DNA of 39,106 bases from positions 1 through 39,106 of the forward strand of contig JASFEO010000012.1 of NCBI GenBank assembly GCA_050124795.1. Direction: 5' to 3'. A program made the translations under genes and the position numbers. The stretch is from Candidatus Pacearchaeota archaeon (GTDB taxonomy: Archaea > Nanobdellota > Nanobdellia > Pacearchaeales > GW2011-AR1). The number at the start of each line of letters is the position of its first letter. Within the stretch, counting starts at the first letter, position 1. Positions 8,350 through 38,996 of this stretch are shown one piece after another. The notes beneath the pieces were generated by a model. It did not search any database. It was not told where the DNA came from and was given only the letters and a program-made list of their open reading frames with translations.

Positions 8350-9264
8350 ATGGCATACACATTAAAAGGTAAGTTGGATTCTATTGGCGATGGTCTGTCT
8401 AGTATAGCGACCGCGTCAAGTCAAATAGCTTCAAATGCAACGGTTTTTGATTCTCTAATTACAGCGGAATCAACAAATGTTAGTTCTTTAACAAGTGCCG
8501 CAACTGATATATCAACCGGTGCTAGTACTATAGTAAGTGCCGGAGCGGCAATAAGTACGGCGAATGATGGAATTGATTCAGTTGGAACTTTAGTTAGTAC
8601 TGGTAATAGTTCGGCCGTAAGCGTTGGAACTTTGGTTAGTACTGCAAATGCTAAAAATGATAGTATTGGAGTTTTACAAAGTACGGGGAATAGTTCAGCG
8701 GTTAGTGTTGGAACCTTAGTTAGTACTGCGAATAGTTTAGGCACTGTTAACGGTTCTAAGATTACTAGTGTTGGAACTTTAGCAAGTACAGGAAACAGTC
8801 TTATAGCTAGTTATGGAACTAAAACAGATAGTGTCGGAACTGCAACAAGTACGGCAAATAGTACAAATTATTCAGCGATTCAAAGTGTTGGAACTTTGCA
8901 AAGTACGGGCAATAGTTCAGCGGTTAGCATAGGAACATTGTTGAGTACTGGAAATTCTAAGACAGATAGTGCGGCAACGGCGGCCAGTACTGCAAATAGT
9001 TCAAGCTTGTCAGCTATTACTAGTTACGGTACGGCCGGAAGTACTGCAAATAGTTCTAGTTTGTCAGCTATTGCTAGTTATGGCACAGCCGGAAGTACTG
9101 CAAATAGTACTAATTTGTCGGCGGTAGATAGTGCGGCGGTAGCGGCTTCAACTGCTAATAGTTCGGCTTTGTCTGCGGTTGTATCACTTGCAACGGTTGT
9201 ATCAACTGGATTTAGCACAACAGATAGTAAGGTAGATTCAGTTGGTGTTGTAGCGGCCGGATAA
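8350..9264 (+). CDS. Ser/Thr/Ala/Gly-rich repeat protein, probable fibrous coiled coil
   Basis: About 13 repeats with an ST[AG]NS-type core, unit lengths 14, 18 or 21 aa; AAGGAG RBS. Confidence 0.8.
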   Translation: MAYTLKGKLDSIGDGLSSIATASSQIASNATVFDSLITAESTNVSSLTSAATDISTGASTIVSAGAAISTANDGIDSVGTLVSTGNSSAVSVGTLVSTANAKNDSIGVLQSTGNSSAVSVGTLVSTANSLGTVNGSKITSVGTLASTGNSLIASYGTKTDSVGTATSTANSTNYSAIQSVGTLQSTGNSSAVSIGTLLSTGNSKTDSAATAASTANSSSLSAITSYGTAGSTANSSSLSAIASYGTAGSTANSTNLSAVDSAAVAASTANSSALSAVVSLATVVSTGFSTTDSKVDSVGVVAAG

Positions 9265-13218: not shown

Positions 13219-13607
13219 CCGACAAAGAAATAATCGAAAATCTTATAAAAAATTATATCTTTATAATAGATTTTTTTACAGATGAAAACATCATTGAACC
13301 AATGATGAATTATTATAAGGATTTTACATATATAGAATATATTTTAGGCCTACCTTTTGAAAGTGGGCTTAAATTATATCTAAAAGCAATAGAACGAACA
13401 CAAGAGGAAAATATGTATAAATTATGGTTGGTTGAAATTGCTAATGGTTGTGAAATGGATTTTGATACTTATTTTAAAAATCAAAAAAATAAATCTGAAG
13501 AAAAATACATGAATGTTGATGAAAAAGAAGAAGAAGAAAAAAGAATTATTGATAAAATAGAAAATAGAAAACTTGGCAAAATGAAAAAAGTTAACTTGCT
13601 AAATTAG
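13185..13607 (+). CDS. Frameshift extension of the tail chaperone (gpGT-like)
   Basis: Open from the slippery site; no RBS before ATG 13302. Confidence 0.75.
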   Translation, partial: VSRDKSGAFQLTDKEIIENLIKNYIFIIDFFTDENIIEPMMNYYKDFTYIEYILGLPFESGLKLYLKAIERTQEENMYKLWLVEIANGCEMDFDTYFKNQKNKSEEKYMNVDEKEEEEKRIIDKIENRKLGKMKKVNLLN

Positions 13608-13781
13608 AAATAAAACTAAAATTTGCTTGCTAGATTTGATCTTGCTAAGTTAGAAATATAACTATTTACTAGGTTTGCTTGCTAGGTTTAAATTTTGCTA
13701 AGTTAGAAATATAATTAGTTTTTGCTAGGTTTGTTTGCTTGCTAGGTATAAAATTTTTGCTAGGTTTGCCCTTGCTAGGTT
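13596..13781 (+). repeat. Array of 10 direct repeats, consensus TTGCTARRTT
   Basis: Copies start at 13596, 13627, 13642, 13666, 13679, 13695, 13722, 13739, 13757 and 13772. Confidence 0.9.
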
Positions 13782-13802
13782 ATTAAAAAGGAGGTTAGCA
13801 AC

Positions 13803-16885: not shown

Positions 16886-19222
16886 ATTCCTTGGTTATAC
16901 AGTAATACAAGTGGTACGCCTACAAATTGGGCTTGGAGTGCTTTAAATACATATAATCAACATGCGGCGGCGGTCACTGGAATACCGGCCAATTGTGCCA
17001 TAACATATTTAAAAGTATTTGCCGCGGCTAGATCGTCAACTGTTTATACAAGACTTTGCTTATGGAATCCGGGCGGCTCAATGATACGCCAAACTTCAAC
17101 TTTTACAATGGCGGTTGGTTCCGAGTCCGGTGGTGGTCAATATTGGTATACCAAAACAATAGACTATTATACATTTAGTGCCGGGGGTACTTTATGGGTT
17201 GGATTGTACAGAAATCCTTCAGGAGGTCATATTTTTGGTACTATGACCGGTTCGGGGGATGGATTTAGAAAAACAAATACAAGTGGTTTTCCTAGTGTTA
17301 AAAGTATGACAGGTTGGAACGTTGATTCTAACGACGAGCCGACAGTTGCATTATTTTATATTACTGCACCGGGTACCCCTTCGAGTGCGGCAGTGTCTAG
17401 AGTGTCAGACACAAAGCACACCGTAACATGGACAATAAATAGCTCAGCCGATCAACCTGCTTGGAATCACATGGTTGAAAGATGGGACAATGTTACTAAT
17501 GGTTGGTATCACAAAGCAACCTTATCAAGCTCGGCAAACTCTTACAGTGATACAACAACTATAGCAAATAGGGAATATAGATACAGAGTTAAAGCGTGGA
17601 ATGGAGCCGGCAATAGTAGTTATTCGACAACAAGTTATATTAATACAACTCCGGCGGCCCCTACAAGTGTTGTTGCGACAAGGGTAACAACAACGGTCGA
17701 AATTACTTGGAGTAATCCGGCTACAAGTGAAAGTGGATTGACTATTCAGCGTAAAACTTCAACAGATGGCGTGTCTTGGTCGAGTTATAGTACTTTAAGT
17801 AGTTCAATAGCCGCCGACGAAACAAGTTACACTGATAACAGCCCGGCAAATTATAATCAATATCAAGTAAGAGCAGACGACGACAACCCTGCTTTACATA
17901 GTAATTATGTTGAGTCTAATATAGTTATTGTTATTCAGCCGCCAGATGCACCAACGGGTTTGGACCCAGATAACGACGAAGCTATTGACGCGGATGAAGC
18001 AAACACTTTTACATTTACACATAATCCATTAGATGGAACCGAACAAAGCAAATTTTCAATAAGATATAGGGCCGTTGGAGATAGTTGGCCGGGAACACCG
18101 CAAGCGAATGAGGTTGCAAGTTCTGTAAGTTCTTATAGTTGGTTAGCTTCAACGTTTACTAATGGCACTGATTATGAATGGCAAGTTCAAACGTGGGGCG
18201 AACATGCGACGGCCTCGGATTGGTCAGCAACAGCAACATTTAAGGCCGTTAGTACTCCGGTAGCTACAATAACAAGCCCGTCGGCGGTAAGCGACTACGG
18301 TCTTAGTACTTTAACAATGGAATGGGATTATACACAGGCCGAAAGTGAAGGACAAACACAATATATTGCAACCTTGAAAGATTCAAATGATAATATATTA
18401 GAAACTAGAAATTATGCGTCAAGTGTTGCGGCCGGTGCTTCGGGTAGTACTGTTTTTGGTTATGCTTTAGAAAATGAAACTACCTACAAAGTTACTCTAC
18501 AAGTAAAATGTACTAGCGAGTTATGGAGTGAAGAAACCGAAGTCGAGTTTGATACTGATTTTTATGTTCCACCAACACCGACAATTAGCTTAGAACTTGA
18601 CGAAGATGTTGGGGGTATAAATGTTACTATAACTAATCCTTCGCCGACTGGTGACGAAGTCGAAGCAGTTTCTAATAGTTTATATAGGTCGGTTGATAGT
18701 GGTGATTGGGAACTAGTAGAGGATGAAATCGACATAAATACAACGGTAACTGATTACTTGCCAAGTATCGGCGGTAATACTAATTATTATGTTAATGCGG
18801 TAAGTGCTACGCCTACGGTTGCCGCGTCAAGTGAGAGCGATCTAGATGTAGAAATGACCGGATATTTTTTCTTAAACGGTGGTGACGGTTACGGCGATTA
18901 CGCTAAACTTAGAGGTGATATATCTTACAACGAAGATTTTGGAAGAGAAACAGTAACAAGAGGTTATGAAGGTAGAGACTACCCGGTAAAATATCAAGGT
19001 ACAAATTTAAACCAAGTAATGTCTTTTAGTTGTGATTTGCCTAAAGAAGATTATTCAACGCTTAAAACTCTTATAGAAACAGCCGGCGAACACTTTTTCA
19101 GAGGTTGGAACGGTAGGTATATGCATTGTTCAATTACAGGGGCGAAAATTACAAGAAAAAGCAATACATCTTACCAGTTTTCGTGTATCCTAGAAAGGAC
19201 GGAAGTAGAAAATGGCAACTAA
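16886..19222 (+). CDS. Distal-tail-like protein with several fibronectin type III/Ig-like domains; start uncertain (GTG 16877 or ATT 16886)
   Basis: First gene after the tape measure; FN3 signatures (YRYRVKAWNGAGNSSYS, YEWQVQTW); AAGGAGGTG overlaps the GTG. Confidence 0.75.
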   Translation: MPWLYSNTSGTPTNWAWSALNTYNQHAAAVTGIPANCAITYLKVFAAARSSTVYTRLCLWNPGGSMIRQTSTFTMAVGSESGGGQYWYTKTIDYYTFSAGGTLWVGLYRNPSGGHIFGTMTGSGDGFRKTNTSGFPSVKSMTGWNVDSNDEPTVALFYITAPGTPSSAAVSRVSDTKHTVTWTINSSADQPAWNHMVERWDNVTNGWYHKATLSSSANSYSDTTTIANREYRYRVKAWNGAGNSSYSTTSYINTTPAAPTSVVATRVTTTVEITWSNPATSESGLTIQRKTSTDGVSWSSYSTLSSSIAADETSYTDNSPANYNQYQVRADDDNPALHSNYVESNIVIVIQPPDAPTGLDPDNDEAIDADEANTFTFTHNPLDGTEQSKFSIRYRAVGDSWPGTPQANEVASSVSSYSWLASTFTNGTDYEWQVQTWGEHATASDWSATATFKAVSTPVATITSPSAVSDYGLSTLTMEWDYTQAESEGQTQYIATLKDSNDNILETRNYASSVAAGASGSTVFGYALENETTYKVTLQVKCTSELWSEETEVEFDTDFYVPPTPTISLELDEDVGGINVTITNPSPTGDEVEAVSNSLYRSVDSGDWELVEDEIDINTTVTDYLPSIGGNTNYYVNAVSATPTVAASSESDLDVEMTGYFFLNGGDGYGDYAKLRGDISYNEDFGRETVTRGYEGRDYPVKYQGTNLNQVMSFSCDLPKEDYSTLKTLIETAGEHFFRGWNGRYMHCSITGAKITRKSNTSYQFSCILERTEVENGN

Positions 19223-20882
19223 TAGATATACACAAACTTATTTAGTCCAATCCGACGATGGATACGTTGACCACACTGCCGGAGATATAGGGACCTCGGA
19301 TAATCCTTTAAGCTTGTTGCTATATTGGAATATATGGAACACTGACGGTTTTTGTGATTGGTTTGCTTTGTTTGGTCCTGTTAATATACCTAATGGCTCG
19401 ACAATAGTTAGGGCCGAATTGCTTTTTAGTTTGTATTATGTTGCTAATGGTTGGGTATCTTCTGAAATACGAATATCAGACAGGCAGAGTGTTTATAGTG
19501 CATATTCGGATTATACAAACCAAGTTGGAACCAATGAAGCTAAGGAGTTTACACTCGATCAAGTAAGTGAAACACAAATAGTCCAAATGGATATAACCGA
19601 TCTTGTGCAAGAAAAAGTTAATCAAGAGGATTGGACCGCCGGAAGTAATATGTTGTTTTATACTTCAAATACAGATGGTGAAACGGTCGATAGTGGAGCC
19701 GATATTGATTCATATGAATACAATCCAGTAATGACTTTAACTATAGTATATGAGCCGCCGGTTGTTCCATCATTACAAAGCATTTTAGGCGGTTCTAGGA
19801 TTGAGGGGTTTAAATATGAATGGTTAACTTTAAGCGGTGGGATATATGTTCATAATGGGTATTTAGATAATTATGTGAGAAATGCTAATATAAAAATTGA
19901 TTTTACTAGAGATATTATCGGAACTATTAATTTAGAAATGAAAAATTATGATAGTGTTAACTTTCTATCTGACTTGATAAGGCCGTATTATTACACTATA
20001 TACAATGGGACGACATACACATTCCCATTAGGGACTTACATGTTATCAAGCCCTAAAAAGCGTTCTGACGGTAATTTTATTACAAGATATGTCCAAGGAT
20101 ATGACTTATTAAAAGCATTAGAAGATGATAAGACGACAACAAGTACATATTATGCGGCCGGTACGGATGTTTATGACACCATAACAACTTTACTTGATGG
20201 GGTTGGCAATTGGGTAAGGTATTCTATTGAGCCAAGCACTGAAACACTTGTGGAAGATATGAGCTTTGAGTTGGGAAGATCAAAACTATTTATAATTAAT
20301 AGCTTGCTAAATACTATTAATTATTATCCTTTATGGTGTAATGGTGAAGGTGTTTATTGCTCTATTCCTTGGGCCGATTATAATAATATTGCTTGGGAAT
20401 TTGAAGACAATAGTTATTCCTTGTATGAGCCGGGAGTAACTCAAGATATTGACTTTTCTGAAATGTATAATAGAGTGGTTGTGATAGCAAGACAATTAAC
20501 AGAAGACACGGCCCCACTGTATAAGGTATGGACTTTTGAAGATGAAAGCATGGATTCTCATCCTTTAAGTTATACCAGTTTAGGTCGTTATATAACTAAA
20601 ATATTTGATAGTGAAGCAGTAAGTCAAACCTACGTAGATTTAAGGGCAAGACGCGAAATATTAAAAATGTTAGAAATAGAAGAAACTTTGGAGTATAATC
20701 ACGCATATATTACGTCAAGGTTAAATGATGGCCTTCCGTTCCAAGGCGATTGTTTTAAATTTAAAAATGATAAACTAGATATAAATAGCGAGACATATAA
20801 AATTGAAACACATGAGTGGTATTTAAAAGTAGGCGAATTGGTTAAATCTACAATAAGGAGGATAACGGCAAGCTATGATTAA
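19212..20882 (+). CDS. Baseplate hub / Tal-like minor tail protein with an extra N-terminal beta domain
   Basis: Position; FPLGTYMLSSP, GYDLLKALEDDK, YNRVVV; N-terminal IPNGSTIVRAEL...DITDLVQE. Confidence 0.7.
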   Translation: MATNRYTQTYLVQSDDGYVDHTAGDIGTSDNPLSLLLYWNIWNTDGFCDWFALFGPVNIPNGSTIVRAELLFSLYYVANGWVSSEIRISDRQSVYSAYSDYTNQVGTNEAKEFTLDQVSETQIVQMDITDLVQEKVNQEDWTAGSNMLFYTSNTDGETVDSGADIDSYEYNPVMTLTIVYEPPVVPSLQSILGGSRIEGFKYEWLTLSGGIYVHNGYLDNYVRNANIKIDFTRDIIGTINLEMKNYDSVNFLSDLIRPYYYTIYNGTTYTFPLGTYMLSSPKKRSDGNFITRYVQGYDLLKALEDDKTTTSTYYAAGTDVYDTITTLLDGVGNWVRYSIEPSTETLVEDMSFELGRSKLFIINSLLNTINYYPLWCNGEGVYCSIPWADYNNIAWEFEDNSYSLYEPGVTQDIDFSEMYNRVVVIARQLTEDTAPLYKVWTFEDESMDSHPLSYTSLGRYITKIFDSEAVSQTYVDLRARREILKMLEIEETLEYNHAYITSRLNDGLPFQGDCFKFKNDKLDINSETYKIETHEWYLKVGELVKSTIRRITASYD

Positions 20883-21555
20883 TAATATAAAATTGTTTCA
20901 AAGCATATTAAACAAGCCAGATAATAAAACATATTTAACGGCGACCGTGTCTGACTTAAACCCTCTTAAGGTTAAACTTTATCCGGGTGATGATGAAATT
21001 TTGGCGATTCCTACTACTAATTTATGGGGTGTTACTGTGGGTTCTAGAGTCCTTTTACTTCGACAAGGAAATCAATTTATATGCACTTCGGTAATTGGTA
21101 GCCCTAAAGTTGATAGTATAACAATAAAAAGAACTTCAAATCAATTGTTTACTGGGACAAGTAACACCAAGATAGCTTATGATAGCGAAGATCAAAAAGT
21201 TGGGAGTAACTTGACTTATGATGCTGTAAATTATGGAATAGAAATTGGTGGTGGTGTTTCAATGGTTGAAGCCCACGCCATGACATGGGCTAATTGTGAA
21301 GCTTCGGGAGCCTATTCAGCACAATACATTTACAAAAACTCTAGCGAAGCGACTTACTCAATTGAAAGAAAACGCGATACAAACTCGGAAAAGTGGAGAC
21401 CCCATTTTGGAAGTGTATTAATACCAGTAACAGAAGGAGACATGATATATTGTTACATTAGGTTTAGTGTTTCGGATGCTTCAAATGGTGTAATTGGTGC
21501 TTATGCAAATTCATGTAAATTGATGGTAAGAGTTGTAGAATATGATTTAACTTAG
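20875..21555 (+). CDS. Tail-tip / receptor-binding protein with a C-terminal beta-sandwich
   Basis: Last structural gene; N-terminal ATV....PLKV...VGSRVLL; C-terminal LIPVTEGDMIY. Confidence 0.55.
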   Translation: MINNIKLFQSILNKPDNKTYLTATVSDLNPLKVKLYPGDDEILAIPTTNLWGVTVGSRVLLLRQGNQFICTSVIGSPKVDSITIKRTSNQLFTGTSNTKIAYDSEDQKVGSNLTYDAVNYGIEIGGGVSMVEAHAMTWANCEASGAYSAQYIYKNSSEATYSIERKRDTNSEKWRPHFGSVLIPVTEGDMIYCYIRFSVSDASNGVIGAYANSCKLMVRVVEYDLT

Positions 21556-21623
21556 AGGGATGTTTAATATGACAATTAAAATTGGGGGAATTTTATTGAA
21601 AATATTTTTTAAAGAATAATTAT

Positions 21624-21658
21624 TTGAATCTAACACAATGTTATTGTGTTAGATTCAA
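21624..21658. repeat. Perfect 16-bp inverted repeat with a 3-nt centre
   Basis: TTGAATCTAACACAAT-GTT-ATTGTGTTAGATTCAA. Confidence 0.9.
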
Positions 21659-21783
21659 CAATATGGTTATAAGATAGCATTAATGCACGTTTTGAAAGTT
21701 TTTGTATTGACAGAAAAAAAATGATATGTTTCAAACAATACATATCGTATATTGGGATACAATATGTTAGATTGGGGGTAAAT

Positions 21784-21984
21784 ATGCAAGATGAAATTTT
21801 AAACATACTAGATTTATGCGAAGTTTTAAAAATATCAGATATCGAAGCTAAAAAATTAATGAAAAGATTAAATGCAAAAATGATTTTTGGAAGGTATTTT
21901 ATCACAAGGAAAATGTTAACCGACTATATTGAAAATGATGCAATACTTAAAAATGATAAAGGCTTTTTACCTCCAAATTTATGA
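21784..21984 (+). CDS. Small MerR/excisionase-like HTH protein
   Basis: ILNILDLCEVLKIS...IFGRYFITRKML..YIE; GGGGT RBS before ATG 21784. Confidence 0.6.
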   Translation: MQDEILNILDLCEVLKISDIEAKKLMKRLNAKMIFGRYFITRKMLTDYIENDAILKNDKGFLPPNL

Positions 21985-21997
21985 AAGGGGATAGTTT

Positions 21998-22282
21998 ATG
22001 TTTGATTTAACACTATTAGATGATTTGACCAACGCCGAACTTGATGAAGTTCTGAAATATATTCATGATAAAAAAAAGAAAACAAAAGATATTTTTGGAG
22101 AATTTTTAGATAATTATGTTTTTGAAGAAAACAAAAAATATACAACTAAAAGTTTATACAAAGACTTTGAAAAGCATTGCAAGGATAAAAAAAAGGTTTG
22201 TCCTATGATTGGGCCATTTACAAAGAGATTAATTAAGTTTAAAGAAGATAATCCAGAAAAAGGGAAGAATATCGAAATTTAA
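21998..22282 (+). CDS. Hypothetical protein; C-terminal half resembles the winged helix of D5/P4 primase-helicases
   Basis: FGEFLD...TKSLYKDFEKHC......FTKRL pattern; AAGGGG RBS. Confidence 0.45.
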   Translation: MFDLTLLDDLTNAELDEVLKYIHDKKKKTKDIFGEFLDNYVFEENKKYTTKSLYKDFEKHCKDKKKVCPMIGPFTKRLIKFKEDNPEKGKNIEI

Positions 22283-22343
22283 TAAAATGTCAAATTATGA
22301 TAATATATACAGATTGAAAAATACAGAAAATGGGGGAAAAACA

Positions 22344-23396
22344 ATGAAAAAGTTAACTATATTGTTAATAATTGTTACATTATTTACTTTAAACTTTGCT
22401 TTTGTCAATGCAGAAGAAACAGAACAGCCATCTTGCAGTCAACAGCCTACATGTGAGCCAAGTCCTAGTATAGATAATAGTGATAATTCTGATAATAGCG
22501 ATAATTCTGATAATAGCGATAATAGTACTAATGTTGACGTTGACCAAAGTACAGAAACAAACGAAGAAACAACAACTACTACAACAACTGAAAATGACAC
22601 AGAAGTAAGTAATGAGAACGAAGTTGAAAACAACACAGAAAATGAAACAGAAACAACAACAACTACAACACAAAATAATAATAAGGATTCAGAAATTAAT
22701 AATAATACTGAAAATACTACAACTAACGAAACAACTACAGTAAATAGCAATAACCAAATTAATAGCAATAATACAACAACTAATAATATTACAAATAATA
22801 CTTATGTTCAAAGCGTTGAATGTAGTCAAAATGAATTAGGTGTTGATAAGGTAAAAGTTGATTTTGGTAAAACATTTAGTGTTGAAAGTGGAAAAGCTTT
22901 AAAAACTGTTTATTATAAAGGGGAAAAAGTTATAAAATTAACTGGAAACAAACTTAATGCAACTCTTTATTTATACGGTAAAGAATTTAAAAATGCTTAT
23001 TGTAAGGCAAAAAGTTTCAAACTTAAAAAAGGTTTAAATAAACTTAAGCATGAAGTATTTATTAATGGGAAAAAGTGTGTTGTAAATATGACTGTTTACT
23101 CTCACAAAGCGAATGTATTATGCAATGTTAATACCAATACAAACAATGGAAAAGTGGTAGACACTAAAAAAATTATTGTAACAGATAAAAAAGCAGACGA
23201 AGTTAAAACAACAACAAGTGTTGTTAGTGCCTCCGGAGTGTTGGCGGCAAAAACACCAGTCGAAGCTGTTCAAGTTTCAAGTAACGGAAGTTTACCACAA
23301 ACAGGTGAAGGAACTCCGATACTTCCAATTATAATAGGTGCTTTGTTAATAATGGTAGGTATCGCAGCAACATTTAAATTGAAACATGCAAAATAA
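22344..23396 (+). CDS. Sortase-anchored (LPXTG) cell-surface protein with an N/T/E-rich low-complexity region
   Basis: Signal peptide MKKLTILLII...VNA-EE; LPQTG, hydrophobic segment and basic tail KLKHAK. Confidence 0.88.
   Translation: MKKLTILLIIVTLFTLNFAFVNAEETEQPSCSQQPTCEPSPSIDNSDNSDNSDNSDNSDNSTNVDVDQSTETNEETTTTTTTENDTEVSNENEVENNTENETETTTTTTQNNNKDSEINNNTENTTTNETTTVNSNNQINSNNTTTNNITNNTYVQSVECSQNELGVDKVKVDFGKTFSVESGKALKTVYYKGEKVIKLTGNKLNATLYLYGKEFKNAYCKAKSFKLKKGLNKLKHEVFINGKKCVVNMTVYSHKANVLCNVNTNTNNGKVVDTKKIIVTDKKADEVKTTTSVVSASGVLAAKTPVEAVQVSSNGSLPQTGEGTPILPIIIGALLIMVGIAATFKLKHAK
22473..22526 (+). repeat. Six 9-bp coding repeats (Asp-Asn-Ser x6)
   Basis: GATAAT(AGT/TCT/AGC) x6. Confidence 0.9.
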
Positions 23397-23433
23397 AATA
23401 ATATAATAGTTTTAACCTTGAATTATTAATAAG

Positions 23434-23463
23434 AAGACTCTGGGCCGTTTAGGTCTTTTTTTT
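23434..23463 (+). terminator. Intrinsic terminator after the LPXTG gene
   Basis: AAGAC...GTCTT hairpin plus long T-run. Confidence 0.55.
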
Positions 23464-23528
23464 GTTTGACTTGTGCCGCAAAATGACATAAAATAATGCA
23501 AAATAACAAAAAAAAGGGGGTAATTGAA

Positions 23529-23723
23529 TTGGATGATAAATTATATTCAGTTGAAGAAGTCGCGAAAATGTTTGGGGTAGCAAATACAACTATTAGAAAG
23601 AAGCTAAGAAAAAAAGAATTGCATGGATTTAAAATCGGAAAAGCTTGGAGAATAAAAAGGACGGAGATTCAAAGGTATTGTAAGGAGGGAATTGACAAGG
23701 CCGAAAAAGAAGGGTTAAGGTGA
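23529..23723 (+). CDS. Excisionase-family HTH (HTH_17) DNA-binding protein; probable TTG start
   Basis: LYSVEEVAKMFGVANTTIRK...LHGFKIGKAWRI. Confidence 0.85.
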   Translation: MDDKLYSVEEVAKMFGVANTTIRKKLRKKELHGFKIGKAWRIKRTEIQRYCKEGIDKAEKEGLR

Positions 23724-23727
23724 TTTT

Positions 23728-25542
23728 ATGAAATTTTTGGGTAAAAACTTATATAACTTATTTGTATATTTAAAAGCAAAAAAAATAAAGCGAATACCAG
23801 TCGCTTTATATATAATAATATTATTATTTGTTTTTGTAAGTTTCTCAACAAAAAAAACATGTTTGAGTCTTTGTATTGTCGTCCTTACATGGATATTAAT
23901 GTATAGTTGGTCATTTTCCAAATCCATAAAATATTATAACACAAGATTTGAAGTTTATAATTTAATAAAAAATAACAGAAGTATTAAATTTGTAGGGCTA
24001 ACTTATCAAGATCAATTTATACTATATAGATTTAAAACCAATATTCCTTTGGAAGAGTTAAGGAAAAGAAAGTCAAGCTTAGAAATGGCATTAAAAACTA
24101 ATATTATCGAAATGGAACTTTATGGTAGGAGTAAAAGTATTTACCAGTTCGTAACAAGTAAGAAAAAAATTGACTTCAAGGCCAAGGCTAAATTATCTAG
24201 TCAAATTCAAGATAAGTTATTTGCGGCTTTTAGAGAATGTAATATTAAGATATCAAATATCGAGGTTATCAAGGAACCCTATAAAAAAACTATATGTTTT
24301 GACTCGAATGAGAATAAGAAAGCTCTAGAAAATAGCCTATATGAAATTGAACATTTAACAGGATTAAGAAATTTAAAGCTTTATTCTGATATAAATTATG
24401 ATTACAAAATAGTATTAAATAAAAATATTGGTATTATAAGCTTTTATACTTTAGTTAAAAATACAAATCTAACCAATAAGGAGAATATGATTGTAGGGCT
24501 AAAAAATAGTGGTAGTTTAGAAATATTAGATATAAAAAAAATATATCATTCAATTGTTGCCGGTTCTACTGGGAAAGGGAAGAGTAACTTTAGTCATGTT
24601 GTTTGTAGTTCTCTAATTAAATCTAATTTAGATATTGCTATGTTCTTATTGGACCCAAAGAAATCAGAGCTAAAGAGATATCGTGATATTGACCGGGTGT
24701 TTTACTCCGGAGATCACAAGGAAATAAACAATATATTAAGTGAAATAGTTAAAGAAATGGACCGTAGGAACATTATGTTTGAAGGAGACAAATTTATTAA
24801 TAATATTGAAATGTGGAACAATTCCAAAGAAGATAAGTTGAATTATATTATAGTTTATGTTGAAGAGATCGCCGACTTAATTATGTCAAGTGATGAAAAA
24901 GACGAAAACTCTTTCAAGAATAATGTAACTAGATTATGTCAGTTAGGCCGTTCCGTTGGTATCAGAGTCTTTTTAAGTACACAAAAGCCAAATGCTGAAA
25001 TAATACCAACTATTATCAAAGGAAATTGCTATACTAGATTTGGTTTTGCTACAACTAACATTATAGAATCAAGGGTAATTTTGGATAACTCAATGTGCTG
25101 TGATCTTAAACAAGCCGGTGACATGATATTCCAAAATAACGGCGAAAATATCAAATTAAAGGTTCCTTTGATTGAGGAAAAATTCATTGTAAATATTGTT
25201 GAATATTTAGAAAAAAATCATAATAAAAAGGCCGATTATCCATTGTCCGGTCGAATGGTCGAAATGGTTAAATCTAAACTTGGAGTTAAAAAAACAGGCG
25301 ACCAATGCGACGGTCGCGACCCGGTCGCAACCATTATAAAAAATAAGCATGATTTGCTTGATTTTTATAAAAAATACTGTGAAAATGAAATTTTTTCTTC
25401 AAGAATAACAAGTGAAAAAGTTGACATAGGAAAAACAAAAATTCAAGAATACAGAAAAGAATTAATAAAAGATGGTACATTAATTGAAAAAGGTAAAAAA
25501 ACATATTTAAATAAAAAAATTAACATCATTAGACTAAAATAA
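23728..25542 (+). CDS. Membrane-anchored FtsK/SpoIIIE-family DNA translocase with a C-terminal winged helix
   Basis: Two N-terminal hydrophobic segments; AGSTGKGKS, LLDPK, IVYVEEIADL, GRSVGIRVFLSTQKP; wHTH-like C-terminus. Confidence 0.9.
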   Translation: MKFLGKNLYNLFVYLKAKKIKRIPVALYIIILLFVFVSFSTKKTCLSLCIVVLTWILMYSWSFSKSIKYYNTRFEVYNLIKNNRSIKFVGLTYQDQFILYRFKTNIPLEELRKRKSSLEMALKTNIIEMELYGRSKSIYQFVTSKKKIDFKAKAKLSSQIQDKLFAAFRECNIKISNIEVIKEPYKKTICFDSNENKKALENSLYEIEHLTGLRNLKLYSDINYDYKIVLNKNIGIISFYTLVKNTNLTNKENMIVGLKNSGSLEILDIKKIYHSIVAGSTGKGKSNFSHVVCSSLIKSNLDIAMFLLDPKKSELKRYRDIDRVFYSGDHKEINNILSEIVKEMDRRNIMFEGDKFINNIEMWNNSKEDKLNYIIVYVEEIADLIMSSDEKDENSFKNNVTRLCQLGRSVGIRVFLSTQKPNAEIIPTIIKGNCYTRFGFATTNIIESRVILDNSMCCDLKQAGDMIFQNNGENIKLKVPLIEEKFIVNIVEYLEKNHNKKADYPLSGRMVEMVKSKLGVKKTGDQCDGRDPVATIIKNKHDLLDFYKKYCENEIFSSRITSEKVDIGKTKIQEYRKELIKDGTLIEKGKKTYLNKKINIIRLK

Positions 25543-25600
25543 GATATAATATTGTTGAATAAAAATAAACTTTGTAGTCCTATTTATAAAAATACTAGCT

Positions 25601-25637
25601 AAAATAAAAAGCCTTTTTTAGGGGCTTTTTATTTTTT
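25601..25637. terminator. Bidirectional intrinsic terminator between convergent operons
   Basis: AAAATAAAAAGCC...GGCTTTTTATTTT. Confidence 0.85.
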
Positions 25638-25777
25638 GTAATTTAATGTATAATATTCAAGAATAGTAATGATAATAGAGTGCTAGTAATGATGAGAATT
25701 GATTTAACGTTATTCTAATCCTTAATTAAGATTTTCTTAAAGTGTTTTTTTTGTAAAAGTAGTGTTTGATTCAAAAC

Positions 25778-25802
25778 TTAACCCCTCTAAGTGAGGGGTT
25801 AA
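25778..25802. terminator. GC-rich hairpin just after the stop of 25807-26028
   Basis: TTAACCCCTC-TAAGT-GAGGGGTTAA. Confidence 0.6.
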
Positions 25803-25806
25803 ACTG

Positions 25807-26028
25807 TTAGATAAATATTTCTATTAATTTTGTTCCGTTCCCGTTATCAGTTATTTTATAAAAACTAAAATTTATAAAAGTGTATTCTTTTCCTTTTGAT
25901 GGTATATTTATAATTATTTCATTTCCAACTATTGAAATAATAGCTTCGTCTGAATAGTCAATTGTTTCAACTGAAACATTCCTATATGTGATTCTAACCA
26001 TAAATCCTTGAAATTGTTTACTTAACAT
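25807..26028 (-). CDS. Hypothetical early protein
   Basis: AAGGAGG RBS; in an operon with the next two genes. Confidence 0.7.
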   Translation of the reverse strand: MLSKQFQGFMVRITYRNVSVETIDYSDEAIISIVGNEIIINIPSKGKEYTFINFSFYKITDNGNGTKLIEIFI

Positions 26029-26041
26029 TTTTATTTCCTCC

Positions 26042-26476
26042 TTAAAATGGTAGTGGTGATATAATACTACTGTAAAATCGTTCTACCTCTTCAAGATTAC
26101 TAAAATATGTATATACGTCTACGCCTTTTTTATTTACTGTTAATGCATATTTACTGCAATTGTTATTTATTTCAATTAAATTTTTATTATAGTATTCACT
26201 AAAAATATTATTTTTATAATAATAATCTTTTGATTTAAAAGCTTTTTGCAACTCTTCAAAAGTTTTCATTTTATGTATTTGCCATTCCATTAAATTAAAT
26301 TCTGATAAAGAATCAATATAATAAAGTGATGTTTTCCAGTAATCACGATTTAGGGGGTTAAATCCTAAATCGTTTAAAGTTCTGTTATAATATACTTTTT
26401 CTATTAATCCGTCTTCATCTTCTAAATACATTCCGGGCTTTATTTCAAGCCCGTTTTTATCGTAATATTTTTTCAT
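26042..26476 (-). CDS. Hypothetical early protein (N-terminus resembles the YopX-like DKNG.EI..G motif)
   Basis: GGAGG RBS; YYDKNGLEIKPG. Confidence 0.65.
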   Translation of the reverse strand: MKKYYDKNGLEIKPGMYLEDEDGLIEKVYYNRTLNDLGFNPLNRDYWKTSLYYIDSLSEFNLMEWQIHKMKTFEELQKAFKSKDYYYKNNIFSEYYNKNLIEINNNCSKYALTVNKKGVDVYTYFSNLEEVERFYSSIISPLPF

Positions 26477-26477
26477 C

Positions 26478-26795
26478 TTATACCTCCCATTTGTACGACT
26501 GTAATACTTTGATCAATTCATCTTCTAGATTCATACCTTGAACCATATCATTATATAAATCTTCGTATTTTCTTATTATATTTTCTTTTGTTGTATCTTC
26601 ATTCGCTGTTATATAGGCAAATCTCCAATTATTGTTTTGTATTTTTTCAATTGCCGCTTTTTTTAATTCTTGGTTATTGCTTTGTTTACAAGCTTTTTTT
26701 AAATCTTTTATATCCTCATTTTGTTTTTTACATGTTGTTTCTAAAATCCTAAAGTTTTTTAACATTGTTTTTTTATTCATTCTCATATTTAACAT
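26478..26795 (-). CDS. Hypothetical early protein
   Basis: AAGGGGG RBS; first gene after the 26865 promoter. Confidence 0.7.
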   Translation of the reverse strand: MLNMRMNKKTMLKNFRILETTCKKQNEDIKDLKKACKQSNNQELKKAAIEKIQNNNWRFAYITANEDTTKENIIRKYEDLYNDMVQGMNLEDELIKVLQSYKWEV

Positions 26796-26836
26796 ATTAA
26801 TTTCCCCCTTGATTTGTTGTCGTTGACTATGATTAC

Positions 26837-26865
26837 ATTATATCGGATATTTTATCCGTTGTCAA
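26837..26865 (-). promoter_or_regulatory. Consensus sigma-A promoter with palindromic operator in the spacer (copy 1)
   Basis: Minus strand reads TTGACA-ACGGATAAAATATCCGA-TATAAT. Confidence 0.9.
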
Positions 26866-26977
26866 TACTTTTTTTATATTTTTTATTTTGTGATATAATT
26901 AAAACATTATTCTATTAAGTTATTTTGTAAGATTTGTTTTTAATGTTTTTGATATTATAATATACTCATTTTTATTT

Positions 26978-27008
26978 AAAAAAAGACCGGATTAAATCGC
27001 CGGTCTTT
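26978..27008 (-). terminator. Intrinsic terminator after the lipoprotein gene
   Basis: AAAGACCGG/CCGGTCTTT stem with a T-run on the minus strand. Confidence 0.8.
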
Positions 27009-27016
27009 GCTCTATC

Positions 27017-27466
27017 TCACTTTATAAAAGTTACATTGTTAACATCTACATTGATTCCTAGTCCTTTGATTTCTCCTTTAACTGTTACCTTATCGCCTTT
27101 TTTCAATTCTGCTACAAAATTTTTGTGGCTGTCTTCAAGCAATAAGCTTACTTGAGGAAAAGATATTTCATCGTCAGCTATTGTAACCGTTAACATTCCG
27201 AGGACTTCTGAAATTGAAATCACTTTTCCGGTTATTTGAGCGTATTTGCCCTTATATTTGATATCGGCCTTGACTTCGTTTTCTTCGTAAGCTTTACATA
27301 ACTCTTTGCTAGTTACTTCTAGGTCAATTTTTTTCTTTTCTTGTGTTGGTAAAGCGGTTTTTGATATTTGTTTTTTCTTTGTTTCAGTTGGTACAGTCGG
27401 TTCACAACTTCCAAATATTAATCCTAACAACCCGATTGTTATAAAAAAAATAATTGCTTTTTTCAT
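27017..27466 (-). CDS. OB-fold (tRNA_anti-like) putative lipoprotein
   Basis: Signal peptide ending IFGSC; EL.KAYEENEVKAD.KYKGK...ITGKV motif. Confidence 0.8.
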   Translation of the reverse strand: MKKAIIFFITIGLLGLIFGSCEPTVPTETKKKQISKTALPTQEKKKIDLEVTSKELCKAYEENEVKADIKYKGKYAQITGKVISISEVLGMLTVTIADDEISFPQVSLLLEDSHKNFVAELKKGDKVTVKGEIKGLGINVDVNNVTFIK

Positions 27467-27479
27467 TTTAAAATCCTCC

Positions 27480-27794
27480 TTAAGATTTTCTATATGTGCA
27501 TATTCCTAATATTTCGCACGATTTTTCGCATACATCACATGGTAAACTTGGTTCCATACATTCAATTATTAATGGTTTAAACTTCACATGTGGGATGCTT
27601 TTTGTTGCATTTTTTATTATACAATATCCGTAATTATAATTTACCTCTATCAAAGTAAACTTAGTTTCTAAAAATTCAATTTCCTTTTGAAAGTCAGCTA
27701 ATTGCTTCCCCTTTAAACCTTTGTCATTATCCTTATAATCGTCGTTATATAGTTTTATTATATCTCTGTAATCAACAAACAAGTATTTATCCAT
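27480..27794 (-). CDS. Hypothetical protein with a C-terminal Cys cluster
   Basis: AGGAGG RBS; C..C...C.....C. Confidence 0.6.
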   Translation of the reverse strand: MDKYLFVDYRDIIKLYNDDYKDNDKGLKGKQLADFQKEIEFLETKFTLIEVNYNYGYCIIKNATKSIPHVKFKPLIIECMEPSLPCDVCEKSCEILGICTYRKS

Positions 27795-27901
27795 TCTAGA
27801 ACCTCCTATTTTAAAATGGCTTGTAAAATGCCATTACACCTAAGATTATTGTAATTATTATCATTACAACAAGAAATTCAATTGCACGTATAAAAGCCTT
27901 G

Positions 27902-28096
27902 TCAAGTTCTGTCTTCTTCTTCTTCTTCTGAAACTTCAATTGGAAAATCAATCCTTTCTATTATTATTTTAAAATCTTCTTCGCTTATCCTTAGATAATC
28001 GCCGGGCTTTACTTGAAGCCTTGTAATATATGGGATTGGTAAGTTTACTAAAATGCTTTTAGTGCCTTTTTTAAAATGTGCTTTTCGTATATACAT
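27902..28096 (-). CDS. AbrB/MazE/SpoVT-family DNA-binding protein
   Basis: SILVNLP......LQVKPGDYLRI; AAGGAGG RBS. Confidence 0.8.
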   Translation of the reverse strand: MYIRKAHFKKGTKSILVNLPIPYITRLQVKPGDYLRISEEDFKIIIERIDFPIEVSEEEEEDRT

Positions 28097-34420: not shown

Positions 34421-34591
34421 TGTTTTACAACTCCTTTACATATAATATTTGATTGCTATACATATAATTATACACACATTTTTAAAATAAATCAATAATT
34501 GTTTATTTTTTAACACAATTTTAGTGTTTTTTTATCCGATTTTGGTTTTATTTAAAACAAGTCGAATAGTTTTTTAACTGTCCGCTAAAAC

Positions 34592-34890
34592 CTTTCCGAC
34601 AAACCTTCCGACTTATAGCCGTTCTGCTAGTTTTGTTTTGAAAGTTTTCGGAGAGCCGGAAAGGTTTTAACAAAAAAAAGTTTCTATATAAAAAAAAAGT
34701 GTGTATATACATATAAAAAATATAATTGTGTGTATCTTTTTTTTTCTATAGAGAAATACTATAAAAACTTTCCGACTTTCCGAACTTTCCGATTATACTT
34801 CTTTATTATCTTCTTTTCTCTTCTTAGAGAAAGAAAGAAAGAAAAAGAATATAAGTCGGAAAGTTTGTCGGAAGGTTGTCGGAAGGTTTG
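34592..34890. other. Putative replication origin with TTCCGA iterons in nested inverted orientation around an AT-rich core
   Basis: TTCCGA at 34594, 34606, 34770, 34778, 34787; TCGGAA at 34856, 34868, 34879; 26-bp outer inverted repeat with 2 mismatches. Confidence 0.75.
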
Positions 34891-35335
34891 ATTTTTTTTT
34901 AAATAACTATCCTATAACATTTTAATAACATTAAACCAACTCTATCAGCATCAATGTGATAATTTTGTGCTTAAGTTGAAATATGAACATGGCAAATAAT
35001 TAACTTAGAGTTAACATTGTTAATTTGGCTGAAATGAATTTTGTAGTCTTTTGATAATTTCGTAACATATGCAACGTAATTTTGTAATAAATTATGGCTT
35101 GTAGTGTTGACCACATGTTTAATATGCAATAATGCCTATTATATGTAGATTAGTTGACATTTATTTACAATTGATCTCAATACTGATAGATTCAAGAATA
35201 GAATAAATTCCTTTGTATCCTTGAAAGAGGGTTTTTTTATGATATAATTGTATTAGTTTTTACATACTTTAAGTAATTTTTTTTTGGAACTGAAATGACA
35301 TATTGTTTAGTTTTCCCTAAACAAACAAAAATACA

Positions 35336-35602: not shown

Positions 35603-35878
35603 GTGTCAGAGGATAGAATTGTTGATATGGTACAAGAAAATTTTAGAAATCTTAGGGAAGATTTAACCCACCGTTTAGACCGAATTGAATCCAAAATAGA
35701 TCAAATGGTAACGAAAGACGATTGTAAAAAAAACCGTCAAAATTGTATAAGAGATACAACAATAAGACAGAGTGAATTGAGCCTTAAGAAGGTTACGGCG
35801 ATAGGTGGAATAATAACGGCAACTATTACCGCCTCGGCTACGGCTGTTTTGTCCATTCTTAAGGTATTTTATCCATAA
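35603..35878 (+). CDS. Holin-like protein (XhlA-type: coiled coil plus C-terminal transmembrane segment)
   Basis: RLDRIESKID coiled coil; hydrophobic C-terminus; AAAGGAG RBS; precedes the endolysin. Confidence 0.65.
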   Translation: MSEDRIVDMVQENFRNLREDLTHRLDRIESKIDQMVTKDDCKKNRQNCIRDTTIRQSELSLKKVTAIGGIITATITASATAVLSILKVFYP

Positions 35879-35890
35879 GGAGGGCTTTAG

Positions 35891-36667
35891 ATGAGTTGGT
35901 ATAACATTGAAGGATTAGGAACTATTAAGCACGATCAAGACCCAACAAACGACTGTTTATATCTTGATGCAGGGCACGGAGGCACAGACACAGGCTGTAT
36001 ATTTTACGACGGAACATACGAAAAGACTTATGTTTTAGACATATTTAAAAGGGTAGAGAAAATATGTAAACCTTATTTTAGTAGGGTATATGTTACAAGG
36101 ACCACTGACACAAGCGTATCTTTAGAAACAAGAACCAAGTCAATGAAAAGTTTAGCAAGTAAATTTAAATCAGTTCAAGCCTACTCAATACATTGCAATG
36201 CTTATAATGGAATATCTAAAGGGGCCGAATGGTTGTTAAGTATATCTACGCCAAAAAGCCATAGTGATTATATTTTTTGTACAAATTTTTTGAAATATTA
36301 TTGTAAAGAATTTAGTTTAAATAATCGTGGTATAGTCCAAAGGCGTGGCAACAATGGCGATTATTATTATTTACACAGAAATACACCGTCTAACTGCAAA
36401 GTAAAATTTATTGAAATGTTTTTTGGAGATAACCGCGATGACTGCAAAAAGGGGCAAACAGAAGCTTTTAAGGATAAGGCAAGCTTTTTCTTAGCTTCTT
36501 ATATATTAAGGCGTTATGGTGTAATATTAAAAAAGCCAGAGACTAAACCAGATAAGCTTTATATAGTTCAGGCCGGTGCATATACTAAGAAGGAAAACGC
36601 GGACCAACAAGTCAAAGCACTGGCGAAAAAGGGTTTTGATGCTTTTGTGAAAATAGAAAAACAGTGA
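35891..36667 (+). CDS. Endolysin: N-acetylmuramoyl-L-alanine amidase (Amidase_3) with C-terminal SPOR domain
   Basis: LDAGHGG.D.G, EK, SIHCNA, IEMFF; LYIVQAGAY..KENA...LAKKGFDAFV. Confidence 0.92.
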   Translation: MSWYNIEGLGTIKHDQDPTNDCLYLDAGHGGTDTGCIFYDGTYEKTYVLDIFKRVEKICKPYFSRVYVTRTTDTSVSLETRTKSMKSLASKFKSVQAYSIHCNAYNGISKGAEWLLSISTPKSHSDYIFCTNFLKYYCKEFSLNNRGIVQRRGNNGDYYYLHRNTPSNCKVKFIEMFFGDNRDDCKKGQTEAFKDKASFFLASYILRRYGVILKKPETKPDKLYIVQAGAYTKKENADQQVKALAKKGFDAFVKIEKQ

Positions 36668-36782
36668 TATAATAATTTTGATGCGTAATAGAAAACGAAT
36701 TTATTTGAAAGTTCTGTGTAGAACCTTTAAACCTTTCAATTTAGATTGGTTTATTTTTTTTGTGTTTTTTTAAGAAAAACAC

Positions 36783-36811
36783 TTGACTTGGGATAAAATA
36801 TCCGATATAAT
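36783..36811 (+). promoter_or_regulatory. Sigma-A promoter with palindromic operator (copy 2)
   Basis: TTGACT-TGGGATAAAATATCCGA-TATAAT. Confidence 0.9.
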
Positions 36812-36860
36812 ATAAATATAGTAAGTCGCAACACAATAATAAATCAAGGGGGATTAGATT

Positions 36861-38959: not shown

Positions 38960-38967
38960 ATAAAAAC

Positions 38968-38996
38968 TTGACAAAGGATAAAATATCCGATATAAT
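38968..38996 (+). promoter_or_regulatory. Sigma-A promoter with palindromic operator (copy 3), driving erf-gam
   Basis: TTGACA-AAGGATAAAATATCCGA-TATAAT. Confidence 0.9.

Follow-up and report, generated by a model that had tools for sequence, protein, structure and literature searches.

Two apparently unrelated accessory modules, one carrying a compact membrane-anchored FtsK-family ATPase, at the tail-distal end of a tailed-phage genome from an archaeal bin

The contig JASFEO010000012.1 (39,106 nucleotides; this whole stretch of DNA is referred to as the window) was binned into a metagenome-assembled genome (MAG) of Candidatus Pacearchaeota and encodes an ordinary tailed-phage gene plan, in which a block of five genes follows the distal tail proteins. 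This block is best read as a pair of accessory modules, unrelated to each other, that sit beyond the tail genes in a non-integrating tailed phage of a sortase-bearing bacterium. Module 1 (genes 1-3; 21784-23396) includes an LPXTG-type surface protein, and module 2 (23496-25665) comprises a small HTH_17 protein and an FtsK/SpoIIIE-family ATPase, hereafter the pump. By sequence, the pump is a distinct phage-associated branch of the FtsK family rather than a member of the TraB, TcpA or cellular FtsK groups. A model that had read only the letters and their open reading frames (ORFs) had combined the surface protein and the pump into one apparatus, through which an extrachromosomal prophage might spread by cell contact or be pumped into daughter cells or spores (the original prediction). 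The evidence presented here separates the two genes and points, tentatively, to a pump acting on the phage's own DNA.

Architecture of the pump and its small partner

Module 2 contains the following protein features:

23496-23723, + strand: gene 4, a 75-aa HTH_17/excisionase-family protein, 5 bp upstream of the pump gene
23728-25542, + strand: gene 5, the pump, a 604-aa membrane-anchored FtsK/SpoIIIE-family ATPase (Pfam, AlphaFold, Foldseek)
23779-23919, + strand: two transmembrane (TM) helices of the pump, residues ~18-64 (hydropathy)
24421-25227, + strand: motor of the pump, residues 232-500, after two small alpha/beta domains
25330-25533, + strand: winged helix of the pump, residues 535-602 (AlphaFold fold)

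The order of TM part, ATPase and winged helix-turn-helix (HTH) foreseen for the translocase was borne out by hydropathy, Pfam and AlphaFold. The FtsK_SpoIIIE family (PF01580) was matched at 6.9e-22, with 78.4 bits against a cut-off of 24, and PF13491, a 4TM N-terminal domain, was not matched. In the AlphaFold model, built on a 21-row alignment and with a mean predicted local distance difference test score (pLDDT) of 83.3, N-terminal helices are followed by two small alpha/beta domains, an FtsK-like alpha/beta motor, a disordered linker (522-533) and a C-terminal helix-helix-helix-strand-strand arrangement (540-594). The best Foldseek matches were the FtsK motors 2iut, 2ius and 6t8b (E 4e-23 to 8e-22 over ~370-390 columns; TM-score by target 0.63-0.74), next TcpA of pCW3 (7e-21, root-mean-square deviation, rmsd, ~15) and then EccC/EssC and HerA; a profile search of the PDB gave a similar picture, with FtsK at 1.1e-45, TcpA at 2.1e-32 and YukB/EssC at 1e-25.

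The presumed catalytic residues are conserved among the aligned relatives. In the pump alignment of 21 sequences (the query and 20 of 21 relatives, P0009 being left out at 45% query coverage), G279, G282, G284, K285, S286 and E380, the last within an EE(I/V)ADL stretch, are invariant, as are R408, R413, T418 and Q419; we take these residues to represent the Walker A, Walker B and GRS..R..STQ motifs.

Gene 4 is well supported as a DNA-binding protein, matching Pfam HTH_17 at 3e-13 (50.2 bits, cut-off 27) and TIGR01764 with 46.2 bits (cut-off 28.8). Since neither PF00589 nor PF00239 was found on the contig, it is regarded as a DNA-binding protein of the excisionase fold and not as a demonstrated excisionase. 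Its profile and that of the C-terminal domain of the pump showed no significant relationship (hhalign probability 4.4%).

The pump family and its phylogenetic position

A word-indexed search returned 21 relatives of the pump at 32-57% identity (P0002-P0022), followed by cellular FtsK proteins at ~30% over the motor only. An exhaustive search of 1.84 billion representatives yielded 70 proteins at E ≤ 1e-30, and 27 of the 42 best that were examined reached at least 200 bits against the family motor profile. The family C-terminal winged helix is also kept in 18 of these 27 representative clusters; the remaining nine end no more than 30 residues after the motor, which suggests either cut gene calls or a shorter form. 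All ~27 clusters originate from uncultured sources, and this compact TM-alpha/beta-winged-helix phage family appears new, as the database output attaches no name or paper to it, the literature not having been searched for the family.

Relatives are scarce in genome collections. The representative genomes of 185,579 species gave only three matches, all on MAG contigs and none from a known spore former, and none of 200 genomes of the MAG's own family contained a relative, which is uninformative on the phage host because that family is archaeal. A metagenome scan found 524 stretches encoding relatives; among the 80 that were kept, one (L013) encodes a true family member at 45% identity, and the other 79 (at most 37% identity, mostly over the motor region alone) are taken for cellular FtsK.

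A tree of the motor region of 54 proteins was inferred under LG+G4. Its rows comprised 21 members of the pump family; the next 20 proteins from the word-indexed search (P0023-P0042), all with the gamma domain except P0042; Escherichia coli FtsK; an 807-aa FtsK from an 'Enterococcus phage' contig; gp22 of phage BtCS33 and its twin from a Bacillus thuringiensis plasmid; the proteins of phages Bastille and Moonbeam; TcpA and TcpB of pCW3; the transfer protein of pIJ101; and four other plasmid proteins. The pIJ101 protein, recorded as a 'helix-turn-helix domain-containing protein', is presumably Tra/KilA. The pump family forms a single clade (bootstrap 99, SH-aLRT 98). A further split (96/93), which involves long branches, separates the pump family, TcpA/B, the BtCS33 type, a Rhodococcus plasmid protein and P0042 from the cellular FtsKs, the Bastille type, two Firmicute plasmid proteins and pIJ101 Tra; the backbone on the pump-family side of this split is weak (55/59). 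Scores against the family motor profile were 145-173 bits for cellular FtsK, 125-164 for Firmicute plasmid and phage proteins, 102 for TcpA, 39 for TcpB and 35 for pIJ101 Tra.

The description of the pump as TraB-like did not hold. Against NF041214, the TraB equivalog family, it scored 30.3 bits where the cut-off is 800 and where unrelated FtsK-like references score 38-63, and neither GntR-type TraR nor Spd genes were found among the 60 ORFs scanned with Pfam and PHROG profiles, a set that underlies the gene searches on the contig reported below unless stated otherwise. The phylogenetic comparison proposed at the outset accordingly places the pump family apart from TcpA, cellular FtsK and both Bacillus phage groups; its TraB arm contains no verified equivalog, the pIJ101 protein having no NF041214 match.

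Module 1 and its separation from the pump

The remaining features of the block and of its borders are:

21624-21658, no strand: hairpin with a perfect 16-bp stem, within the 228 bp that separate the block from the last tail gene
21784-21984, + strand: gene 1, 66 aa, weakly HTH/excisionase-like (phrog_31485, 2.2e-4; phrog_4370 'excisionase', 9.9e-4)
21998-22282, + strand: gene 2, a 94-aa basic protein, possibly a stand-alone Pox_D5-like primase C-terminal winged helix (protein-atlas lead)
22287-23396, + strand: gene 3, a 369-aa sortase-substrate-type surface protein with its probable start at M20 (22344)
23379-23407, + strand: promoter-like TTGAAA-17-TATAAT (consensus match)
23442-23456, + strand: terminator-like hairpin between gene 3 and the HTH_17-pump pair
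23466-23494, + strand: promoter-like TTGACT-17-TAAAAT (consensus match)
25601-25635, no strand: bidirectional terminator-like hairpin of 16 pairs with a GC-containing stem, an A-run and a T-run, between converging units

As originally described, the block consists of five co-oriented + strand genes (21784-25542, by ORF calls) and lies between the tail module, whose last gene by PHROG assignment ends at 21555, and the bidirectional terminator-like hairpin. The upstream hairpin at 21624-21658 has no T-run on the + strand, which makes an operator or boundary likelier than a + strand terminator.

The identity of the five products was predicted with variable success. A sortase substrate is clearly encoded by gene 3: a signal peptide (FVNA/EE) precedes an acidic, low-complexity stalk rich in S, D, N, T and E, a beta-rich domain of ~150 aa and, by hydropathy, a C-terminus made of LPQTG, a hydrophobic segment and KLKHAK, and the LPXTG-substrate features MKKLTILLIIVTLFTLNFAFVNA and LPQTGEGTPILPIIIGALLIMVGIAATFKLKHAK are present. 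TIGR01167 was matched above its cut-off (18.1, cut-off 15.9) and Pfam Gram_pos_anchor (PF00746) 2.3 bits under it (17.7, cut-off 20). Residues 175-369 had no homologue among 569 candidates, and the protein-atlas leads, all below 0.9, were to small LPXTG/beta-sandwich proteins. Of the two excisionase-type HTH proteins announced, gene 4 was corroborated as set out above; for gene 1 the PHROG matches are suggestive, no Pfam or NCBIfam family was reached at its curated cut-off, and BLASTP found no similarity to gene 4. A winged-helix-like nature of gene 2 is consistent with the atlas lead (score 0.95, TM-score 0.53-0.68, with ten of the ten best family-bearing matches in one family or clan); Pfam, PHROGs, NCBIfam and PADLOC gave nothing significant for this protein.

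Within the block, the LPXTG gene looks, from the terminator-like and promoter-like sites that follow it, like a transcription unit separate from the HTH_17-pump pair, promoter-like sites not being enriched in this AT-rich region (33 found, 30.3 expected from shuffles). The relatives of the pump give a clearer answer. L004 is a viral contig whose tail module is 45-59% identical to that of the phage and which has the HTH_17-pump pair as well (35% and 46% identity); nothing but a 58-aa membrane ORF on the opposite strand comes between this pair and the tail fibre. In L005 and L006, a 373-aa multi-pass membrane protein is encoded ahead of the pump, which converges on a tape-measure gene, and in L011, a 70-kb contig, the pump gene closes a run of replication-type genes. 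No LPXTG gene stands beside the pump in any of these three distinct contexts with upstream sequence, none of ten relative loci scanned encodes an LPXTG-type C-terminal signal, and genes 1-3 had no tblastn match in any fetched relative locus. The pump gene of L013 is preceded by only 111 bases of sequence; a large serine recombinase is encoded 2.8 kb away from it, and an HTH_3 repressor-like gene is close by.

The LPXTG and pump genes therefore assort independently, an outcome named in advance as refuting, and with this the proposal of an adhesin and a TraB-like pump working as one transfer system fails; its contexts bind the pump to no LPXTG partner and to no lifestyle without an integrase. 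Module 1 may instead be a strain-specific 'moron' made of two small DNA-binding proteins and an orphan wall-anchored surface protein, the latter possibly displayed by the infected or carrier cell for exclusion, adhesion or masking. More generally, neither integration nor conjugation follows from an 'excisionase' or an 'LPXTG' label on a phage gene.

A repeat cluster at the 3' end of the pump gene

The 3' third of the pump gene and the sequence just after it contain a cluster of short repeats, which appears to be a new candidate cis site:

24913-25665, both strands: six copies of TTCAASAATA, at 24913 (+), 25194 (-), 25398 (+), 25442 (+), 25550 (-) and 25656 (+)
21654-21663: outlying copy directly after the hairpin at 21624-21658
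35191: outlying copy in the main regulatory region

The word TTCAAGAATA has five exact copies in the window, four of them on the + strand within 753 bp (24913, 25398, 25442, 25656), and the three inside the pump gene occupy three different reading frames. Only three loci of the genome hold a 10-mer with four copies in 800 bp, the other two being a coding tandem repeat and an intergenic array, and such a 10-mer did not arise in any of 200 third-order Markov simulations. Allowing one degenerate position gives TTCAASAATA, of which the window contains eight exact copies against 0.72 expected, a count of eight being reached in none of 100 shuffles. The 12-mer ATTCAACAATAT is common to the C-type copies of this motif and lies at 21653-21664 (+), 25193-25204 (-) and 25549-25560 (-). 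A whole-genome scan for over-represented 8-mers, as would be expected of a KOPS-like polar motif, brought out nothing (best z ~3).

These repeats could be a loading site for the winged helix of the pump or an operator array for one of the small proteins of the block; in position and form, the cluster resembles a clt-like loading site. The relatives L005 and L006 carry repeats of other kinds, possibly iterons or a spacer-less repeat array: there are long arrays of ~29-bp tandem repeats (L005 8670-8915; L006 7330-7800) and, at a distance of a few kb from the pump gene, TAGGGCAAAA repeats in both direct and inverted orientation (L005 9540-10015).

The phage genome, its bin and its probable host

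The window is a whole contig of the MAG (1.06 Mb, 38 contigs); IMG/VR lists this contig as a viral genome. The identity of its first 127 bases with its last 127 indicates a circularly closed assembly of ~38,979 bp. Scans of the 60 ORFs resolved two converging units:

35.6 kb through the origin to 25.5 kb, + strand: from PHROG/Pfam gene order, a holin-like protein, an Amidase_3+SPOR endolysin, small genes, a Cro-like HTH protein, Erf, a Gam-like protein, large terminase, portal, scaffold, major head protein, connector and tail proteins, tape measure and distal tail proteins, with the five-gene block last
34.7 to 25.8 kb, - strand: a ribbon-helix-helix protein, a VapE-type primase-helicase, an SNF2-type helicase, a VRR-NUC nuclease and a Sie-like protein
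27017-27466, - strand: the Sie-like protein, a membrane-anchored OB-fold (PHROG 'superinfection exclusion Sie-like')
36773-36826 (+), 38958-39011 (+; equal to 1-32 after the overlap) and 26826-26881 (-): three promoter copies, with 91% identity between the + copies and 76-80% complementarity to the - copy

A six-frame search detected no tyrosine or serine recombinase on the contig, the PF00589 and PF00239 matches being confined to other contigs. The scanned ORFs yielded no partition family, no sporulation-type sigma factor or other sporulation-related gene, and no relaxase, type IV secretion, VirB4, VirB6 or mating-pore gene, relaxases and type IV secretion not having been the target of a six-frame search.

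The MAG is an archaeon and probably not the host of the phage. It carries ribosomal protein L32e, bacterial L20 was not found in it, it has no cellular FtsK, and sortase (PF04203) is absent from it and from 100 other searched genomes of its family. Apart from one 26-nt A-rich match, the contig and the rest of the MAG have no shared sequence or spacer-like match. The signals on the contig are bacterial: a strong promoter trio, GGAG-type ribosome-binding words ahead of 13 of its 23 long ORFs (as against 113 of 723 in the remaining MAG), a SPOR-domain muramoyl-alanine amidase and a canonical LPXTG signal. Among named relatives, those nearest to the structural proteins come for the most part from phages with Gram-positive hosts. 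For the major head protein there are 105 matching records (Streptococcus 31, Clostridium 14, Listeria 14, Bacillus 13 and others, including 3 of Stenotrophomonas and 2 of a Methanomassiliicoccales virus), its best match being Eggerthella phage PMBT5 at 40%, and the tail protein matches Bacillus, Microbacterium, Arthrobacter and Streptomyces phages; the endolysin has 26 relatives, several of them on 37-41-kb contigs. One of these relatives is probably encoded on the 37,483-base contig that also carries the pump relative P0002, which points to a group of related phages. Given an archaeal MAG, bacterial signals and no sequence link between the two, the contig is treated as a bacterial phage of a sortase-bearing host. 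Statements about spores or a prophage have no anchor here. The case also carries a practical warning, in that a bacterial phage contig can sit inside an archaeal (DPANN) MAG. GGAG-type words were also raised on contigs C6 (9 of 33), C8 (9 of 33) and C9 (14 of 32), and C8 encodes a tape-measure homologue, so that the bin may contain more foreign contigs.

The phage was present in several wetland metagenome runs, nearly all sampled words being recovered in three, which may be its source. Over 19000-28000, contigs of four wetland runs (one of them 36.8 kb long at depth 91) were identical in sequence, and no variant without either module, or with a replacement of it, occurred among them. No near-identity DNA match to the block was found in the phage collection searched.

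Further observations concern the genome at large. The three promoter copies (TTGAC(T/A)-17-TATAAT, with the palindrome GGATAAAATATCC between the hexamers) look like one repressor-controlled early regulon serving the small genes at 36861, Erf/Gam and the - strand genes; those served by the third copy (26795-25807) converge on the pump gene. The lysis cassette (35603-36667), in which a 91-aa holin-like protein with a C-terminal TM helix precedes the Amidase_3+SPOR lysin, opens the rightward transcription unit upstream of the early and recombination genes instead of following the tail genes. Among the structural genes, a 200-bp intergenic array at 13590-13790 contains ~5 copies of TTGCTAGGT(T) and three of CTTGCTAAGTTAGAAATATAA, the homologous junction in L004 measuring only 18 bp; it is a candidate pac site, late-promoter activator or centromere-like site. 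At 34590-34895, an AT-rich stretch beside the VapE-type primase-helicase module is flanked by iteron-like CTTTCCGA(C) repeats, in direct orientation at 34592-34620 and 34767-34792 and inverted at 34855-34890, which mark a probable replication origin. Lastly, 8350-9264 encodes a 304-aa structural-module protein of degenerate 42/54/63-nt repeats (SVGTL.STGNS-type units) without a PHROG family, which may be a head/neck fibre or decoration protein.

Possible functions of the pump

The function towards which we lean, while rating it somewhat short of an even chance, is that of a sequence-directed membrane translocase of double-stranded DNA (dsDNA) whose substrate would be the phage's own genome, handled or segregated at the membrane or septum. 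The two N-terminal helices would hold the pump in the cytoplasmic membrane, and the motor would form an FtsK-like, presumably hexameric ring around dsDNA, hydrolysing ATP and pumping the DNA. Sequence specificity would come from the C-terminal winged helix, with the TTCAASAATA repeats as loading or orienting site on the phage genome and the HTH_17 protein as a regulator of the pump in kil-kor style or as its loading partner. Phage DNA would in this manner be dealt with at the membrane or the closing septum, and the unintegrated genome would be neither trapped nor lost at host division. The conserved TM-motor-winged-helix order, the repeat cluster and the failure to find partition or integration genes keep this part of the original prediction, pumping into daughter cells, live.

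Several results weigh against genome segregation by the pump. The profile of its C-terminal domain is unlike the FtsK gamma alignment (hhalign probability 0.15%; PF09397 not matched), and its best solved-structure matches, the uncharacterised 3anw (E 0.021) and Tn916 Xis (E 0.03), are not significant. TTCAASAATA has no copy in the pump genes of L004, L010, L011 and L013 and one distant copy in L005, and a generic scan for 9-mer clusters in the relative loci found nothing clearly comparable at the 3' ends, L004 being cut before its 3' end. A missing motif would be expected if specificity differed from pump to pump, as it does among TraB proteins; it leaves the site unproven all the same, and the repeats could be operators for one of the three small DNA-binding proteins. 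The HTH_17 gene adjoins the pump in one of the three distinct relative contexts with upstream sequence (L004), and L011, with large replication genes of its own, looks virulent, a setting in which segregation would matter little. At the domain level, finally, the motor matches ATPases of defence systems (PADLOC SspH 9.5e-21 and mad8 7.4e-14).

The last point leads to defence or superinfection exclusion, which we consider unlikely. Here, the membrane ATPase and its HTH partner would pump out, stall or sense incoming foreign DNA and thereby protect the infected or carrier cell, alongside the LPXTG protein and the - strand Sie-like protein. The position of the module is that of an accessory 'moron', defence systems often contain ATPases of the FtsK/HerA class (SIR2-HerA and DUF4297-HerA are among the PDB matches), and two adjacent genes match two components of MADS in PADLOC, mad8 and mad1 (2.6e-5 for the latter), with 35.9 bits for NCBIfam antiphage_MADS1 (NF047737). 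This last score, however, is below family level (cut-off 80), mad8 and SspH align over the generic P-loop motor only, the remaining MADS and Ssp genes are not present, and the best sequence and fold matches are true FtsK motors with alpha and beta domains. Pump-family contexts, moreover, are phage genomes and not defence islands, and recognition-like repeats on the phage's own DNA suit self-recognition. Other membrane-linked roles, such as a replication or packaging anchor, nucleoid remodelling during host takeover or the remnant of a captured mobile element, appear to us about as improbable as defence. They would accord with the PHROG category of the pump family ('moron, auxiliary metabolic gene and host takeover'), with the resemblance of gene 2 to a primase C-terminal domain, with the hyp-FtsK-'replication-relaxation' cassette shared by BtCS33 and a B. 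thuringiensis plasmid, and with the inverted 12-mer copies at the block ends (21653-21664 and 25549-25560); a captured element, however, would be at odds with the lack of a recombinase, transposase or Rep gene in or beside the block, and the third 12-mer copy, inside the pump gene, makes binding sites a better fit than element ends.

Delivery of the phage genome into the forespore by a SpoIIIE-like pump is very improbable. Phage genes of the FtsK/SpoIIIE type are familiar above all from phages whose hosts form spores, and a connection with sporulation has been discussed for them (PMC4113786, PMC3359378, PMC3601020); in the present case, however, the scanned phage ORFs showed no sporulation gene, the pump family stands apart from both Bacillus phage groups, its few matches in species-representative genomes do not include a known spore former, and the MAG is an archaeon without sortase or FtsK. 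The predicted spore inheritance thus finds no support. Even less credible, in our view, is virion-independent transfer, in which the LPXTG protein would aggregate cells and a TraB-like pump would send dsDNA to a neighbour. The pump does share with TraB the order of membrane part, FtsK-like motor and C-terminal DNA-recognition domain, there is a direct-repeat cluster in and after the 3' end of its gene, and pCW3 places a sortase and an LPXTG-type pilin-related protein beside the FtsK-like TcpA. Against it stand the orphan state of the LPXTG gene and its seemingly separate transcription, the NF041214 score, the place of pIJ101 Tra as the reference most distant from the family profile, and the failure to find Spd, TraR, VirB4, VirB6 or a relaxase among the scanned ORFs; to our knowledge, transfer of the TraB type is confined to mycelial actinomycetes.

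Genome segregation by the pump also admits a bolder version, which we hold to be unlikely. The pump might serve as an inheritance or spread device free of partition genes, a mini membrane FtsK that would load on the clt-like TTCAASAATA array and pump dsDNA across closing septa and, in chained or filamentous hosts, into the neighbouring compartment; it would be a phage counterpart of TraB/clt arisen independently within the FtsK family. Genes of the FtsK/SpoIIIE type have been on record in phages for some twenty years, their function a matter of speculation. With the pump, one small partner and a candidate cis site all lying within 2.2 kb, the compact unit and its confident structural model make the question testable.

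Comparison with known systems

For module 1, the closest parallel is SasX of staphylococcal prophages, a prophage-borne LPXTG surface protein (PMC7047976). Gene 3 would likewise be a phage-carried sortase-substrate gene acting as a conversion factor; unlike SasX, to which it has no sequence relationship, it has no detectable homologue.

FtsK/SpoIIIE genes occur in gamma-like and Bastille-like phages of Bacillus, with functions that are discussed as speculative in the same passages as above (PMC4113786, PMC3359378, PMC3601020). Like these proteins (BtCS33 gp22; Bastille and Moonbeam; PHROGs 1358 and 3551), the pump is a phage-encoded motor in an accessory position after structural or lysis genes. 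It differs from them in sequence (~26-28% identity over the motor), in clade and in length, BtCS33 gp22 having 388 aa and Bastille-type proteins ~750-770 aa against 604 aa. In BtCS33 (L094 4481-6576), the gene belongs to a cassette of a 106-aa hypothetical protein, the 388-aa FtsK-like protein and a 'replication-relaxation' or 'replication initiation' protein, and the same cassette lies on the large B. thuringiensis plasmid pHS18-1 (L104 2047-4142), a hint that this type of phage FtsK came from a DNA-processing module of a plasmid or integrative and conjugative element.

With cellular FtsK/SpoIIIE, the pump shares a membrane anchor, an alpha/beta motor and, as judged from the model, a C-terminal winged-helix-type domain that may bind DNA. 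It departs from them in having two TM helices instead of 4TM, no long linker and no gamma domain (PF09397), which the cellular FtsK matches do carry, and in falling outside the cellular clade. TcpA of pCW3 and the Firmicute coupling proteins resemble the pump in their N-terminal TM part and FtsK-like motor, as the Foldseek and profile matches reflect; the overall alignment of TcpA is, however, poor, TcpA and TcpB form a separate clade (99/95), and on pCW3 TcpA adjoins relaxase and mating-pore genes, of which the 60 phage ORFs showed none.

In Streptomyces elements, clt lies near the 3' end of traB. The domain order of the pump and the short direct repeats in and after the 3' end of its gene recall this arrangement. 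The partner of the pump, by contrast, is an HTH_17 protein instead of a GntR-type TraR, Spd genes were not found, and the element is a phage and not a plasmid or actinomycete integrative and conjugative element. TraB binds the direct 8-bp repeats of clt through its C-terminus, each TraB protein having its own specificity, as stated in the relevant part of PMC4447253. Should loading on the phage's own genome be borne out, the pump would illustrate how a genome that stays unintegrated can be inherited without ParABS and would provide a second, independent case of the TraB/clt logic.

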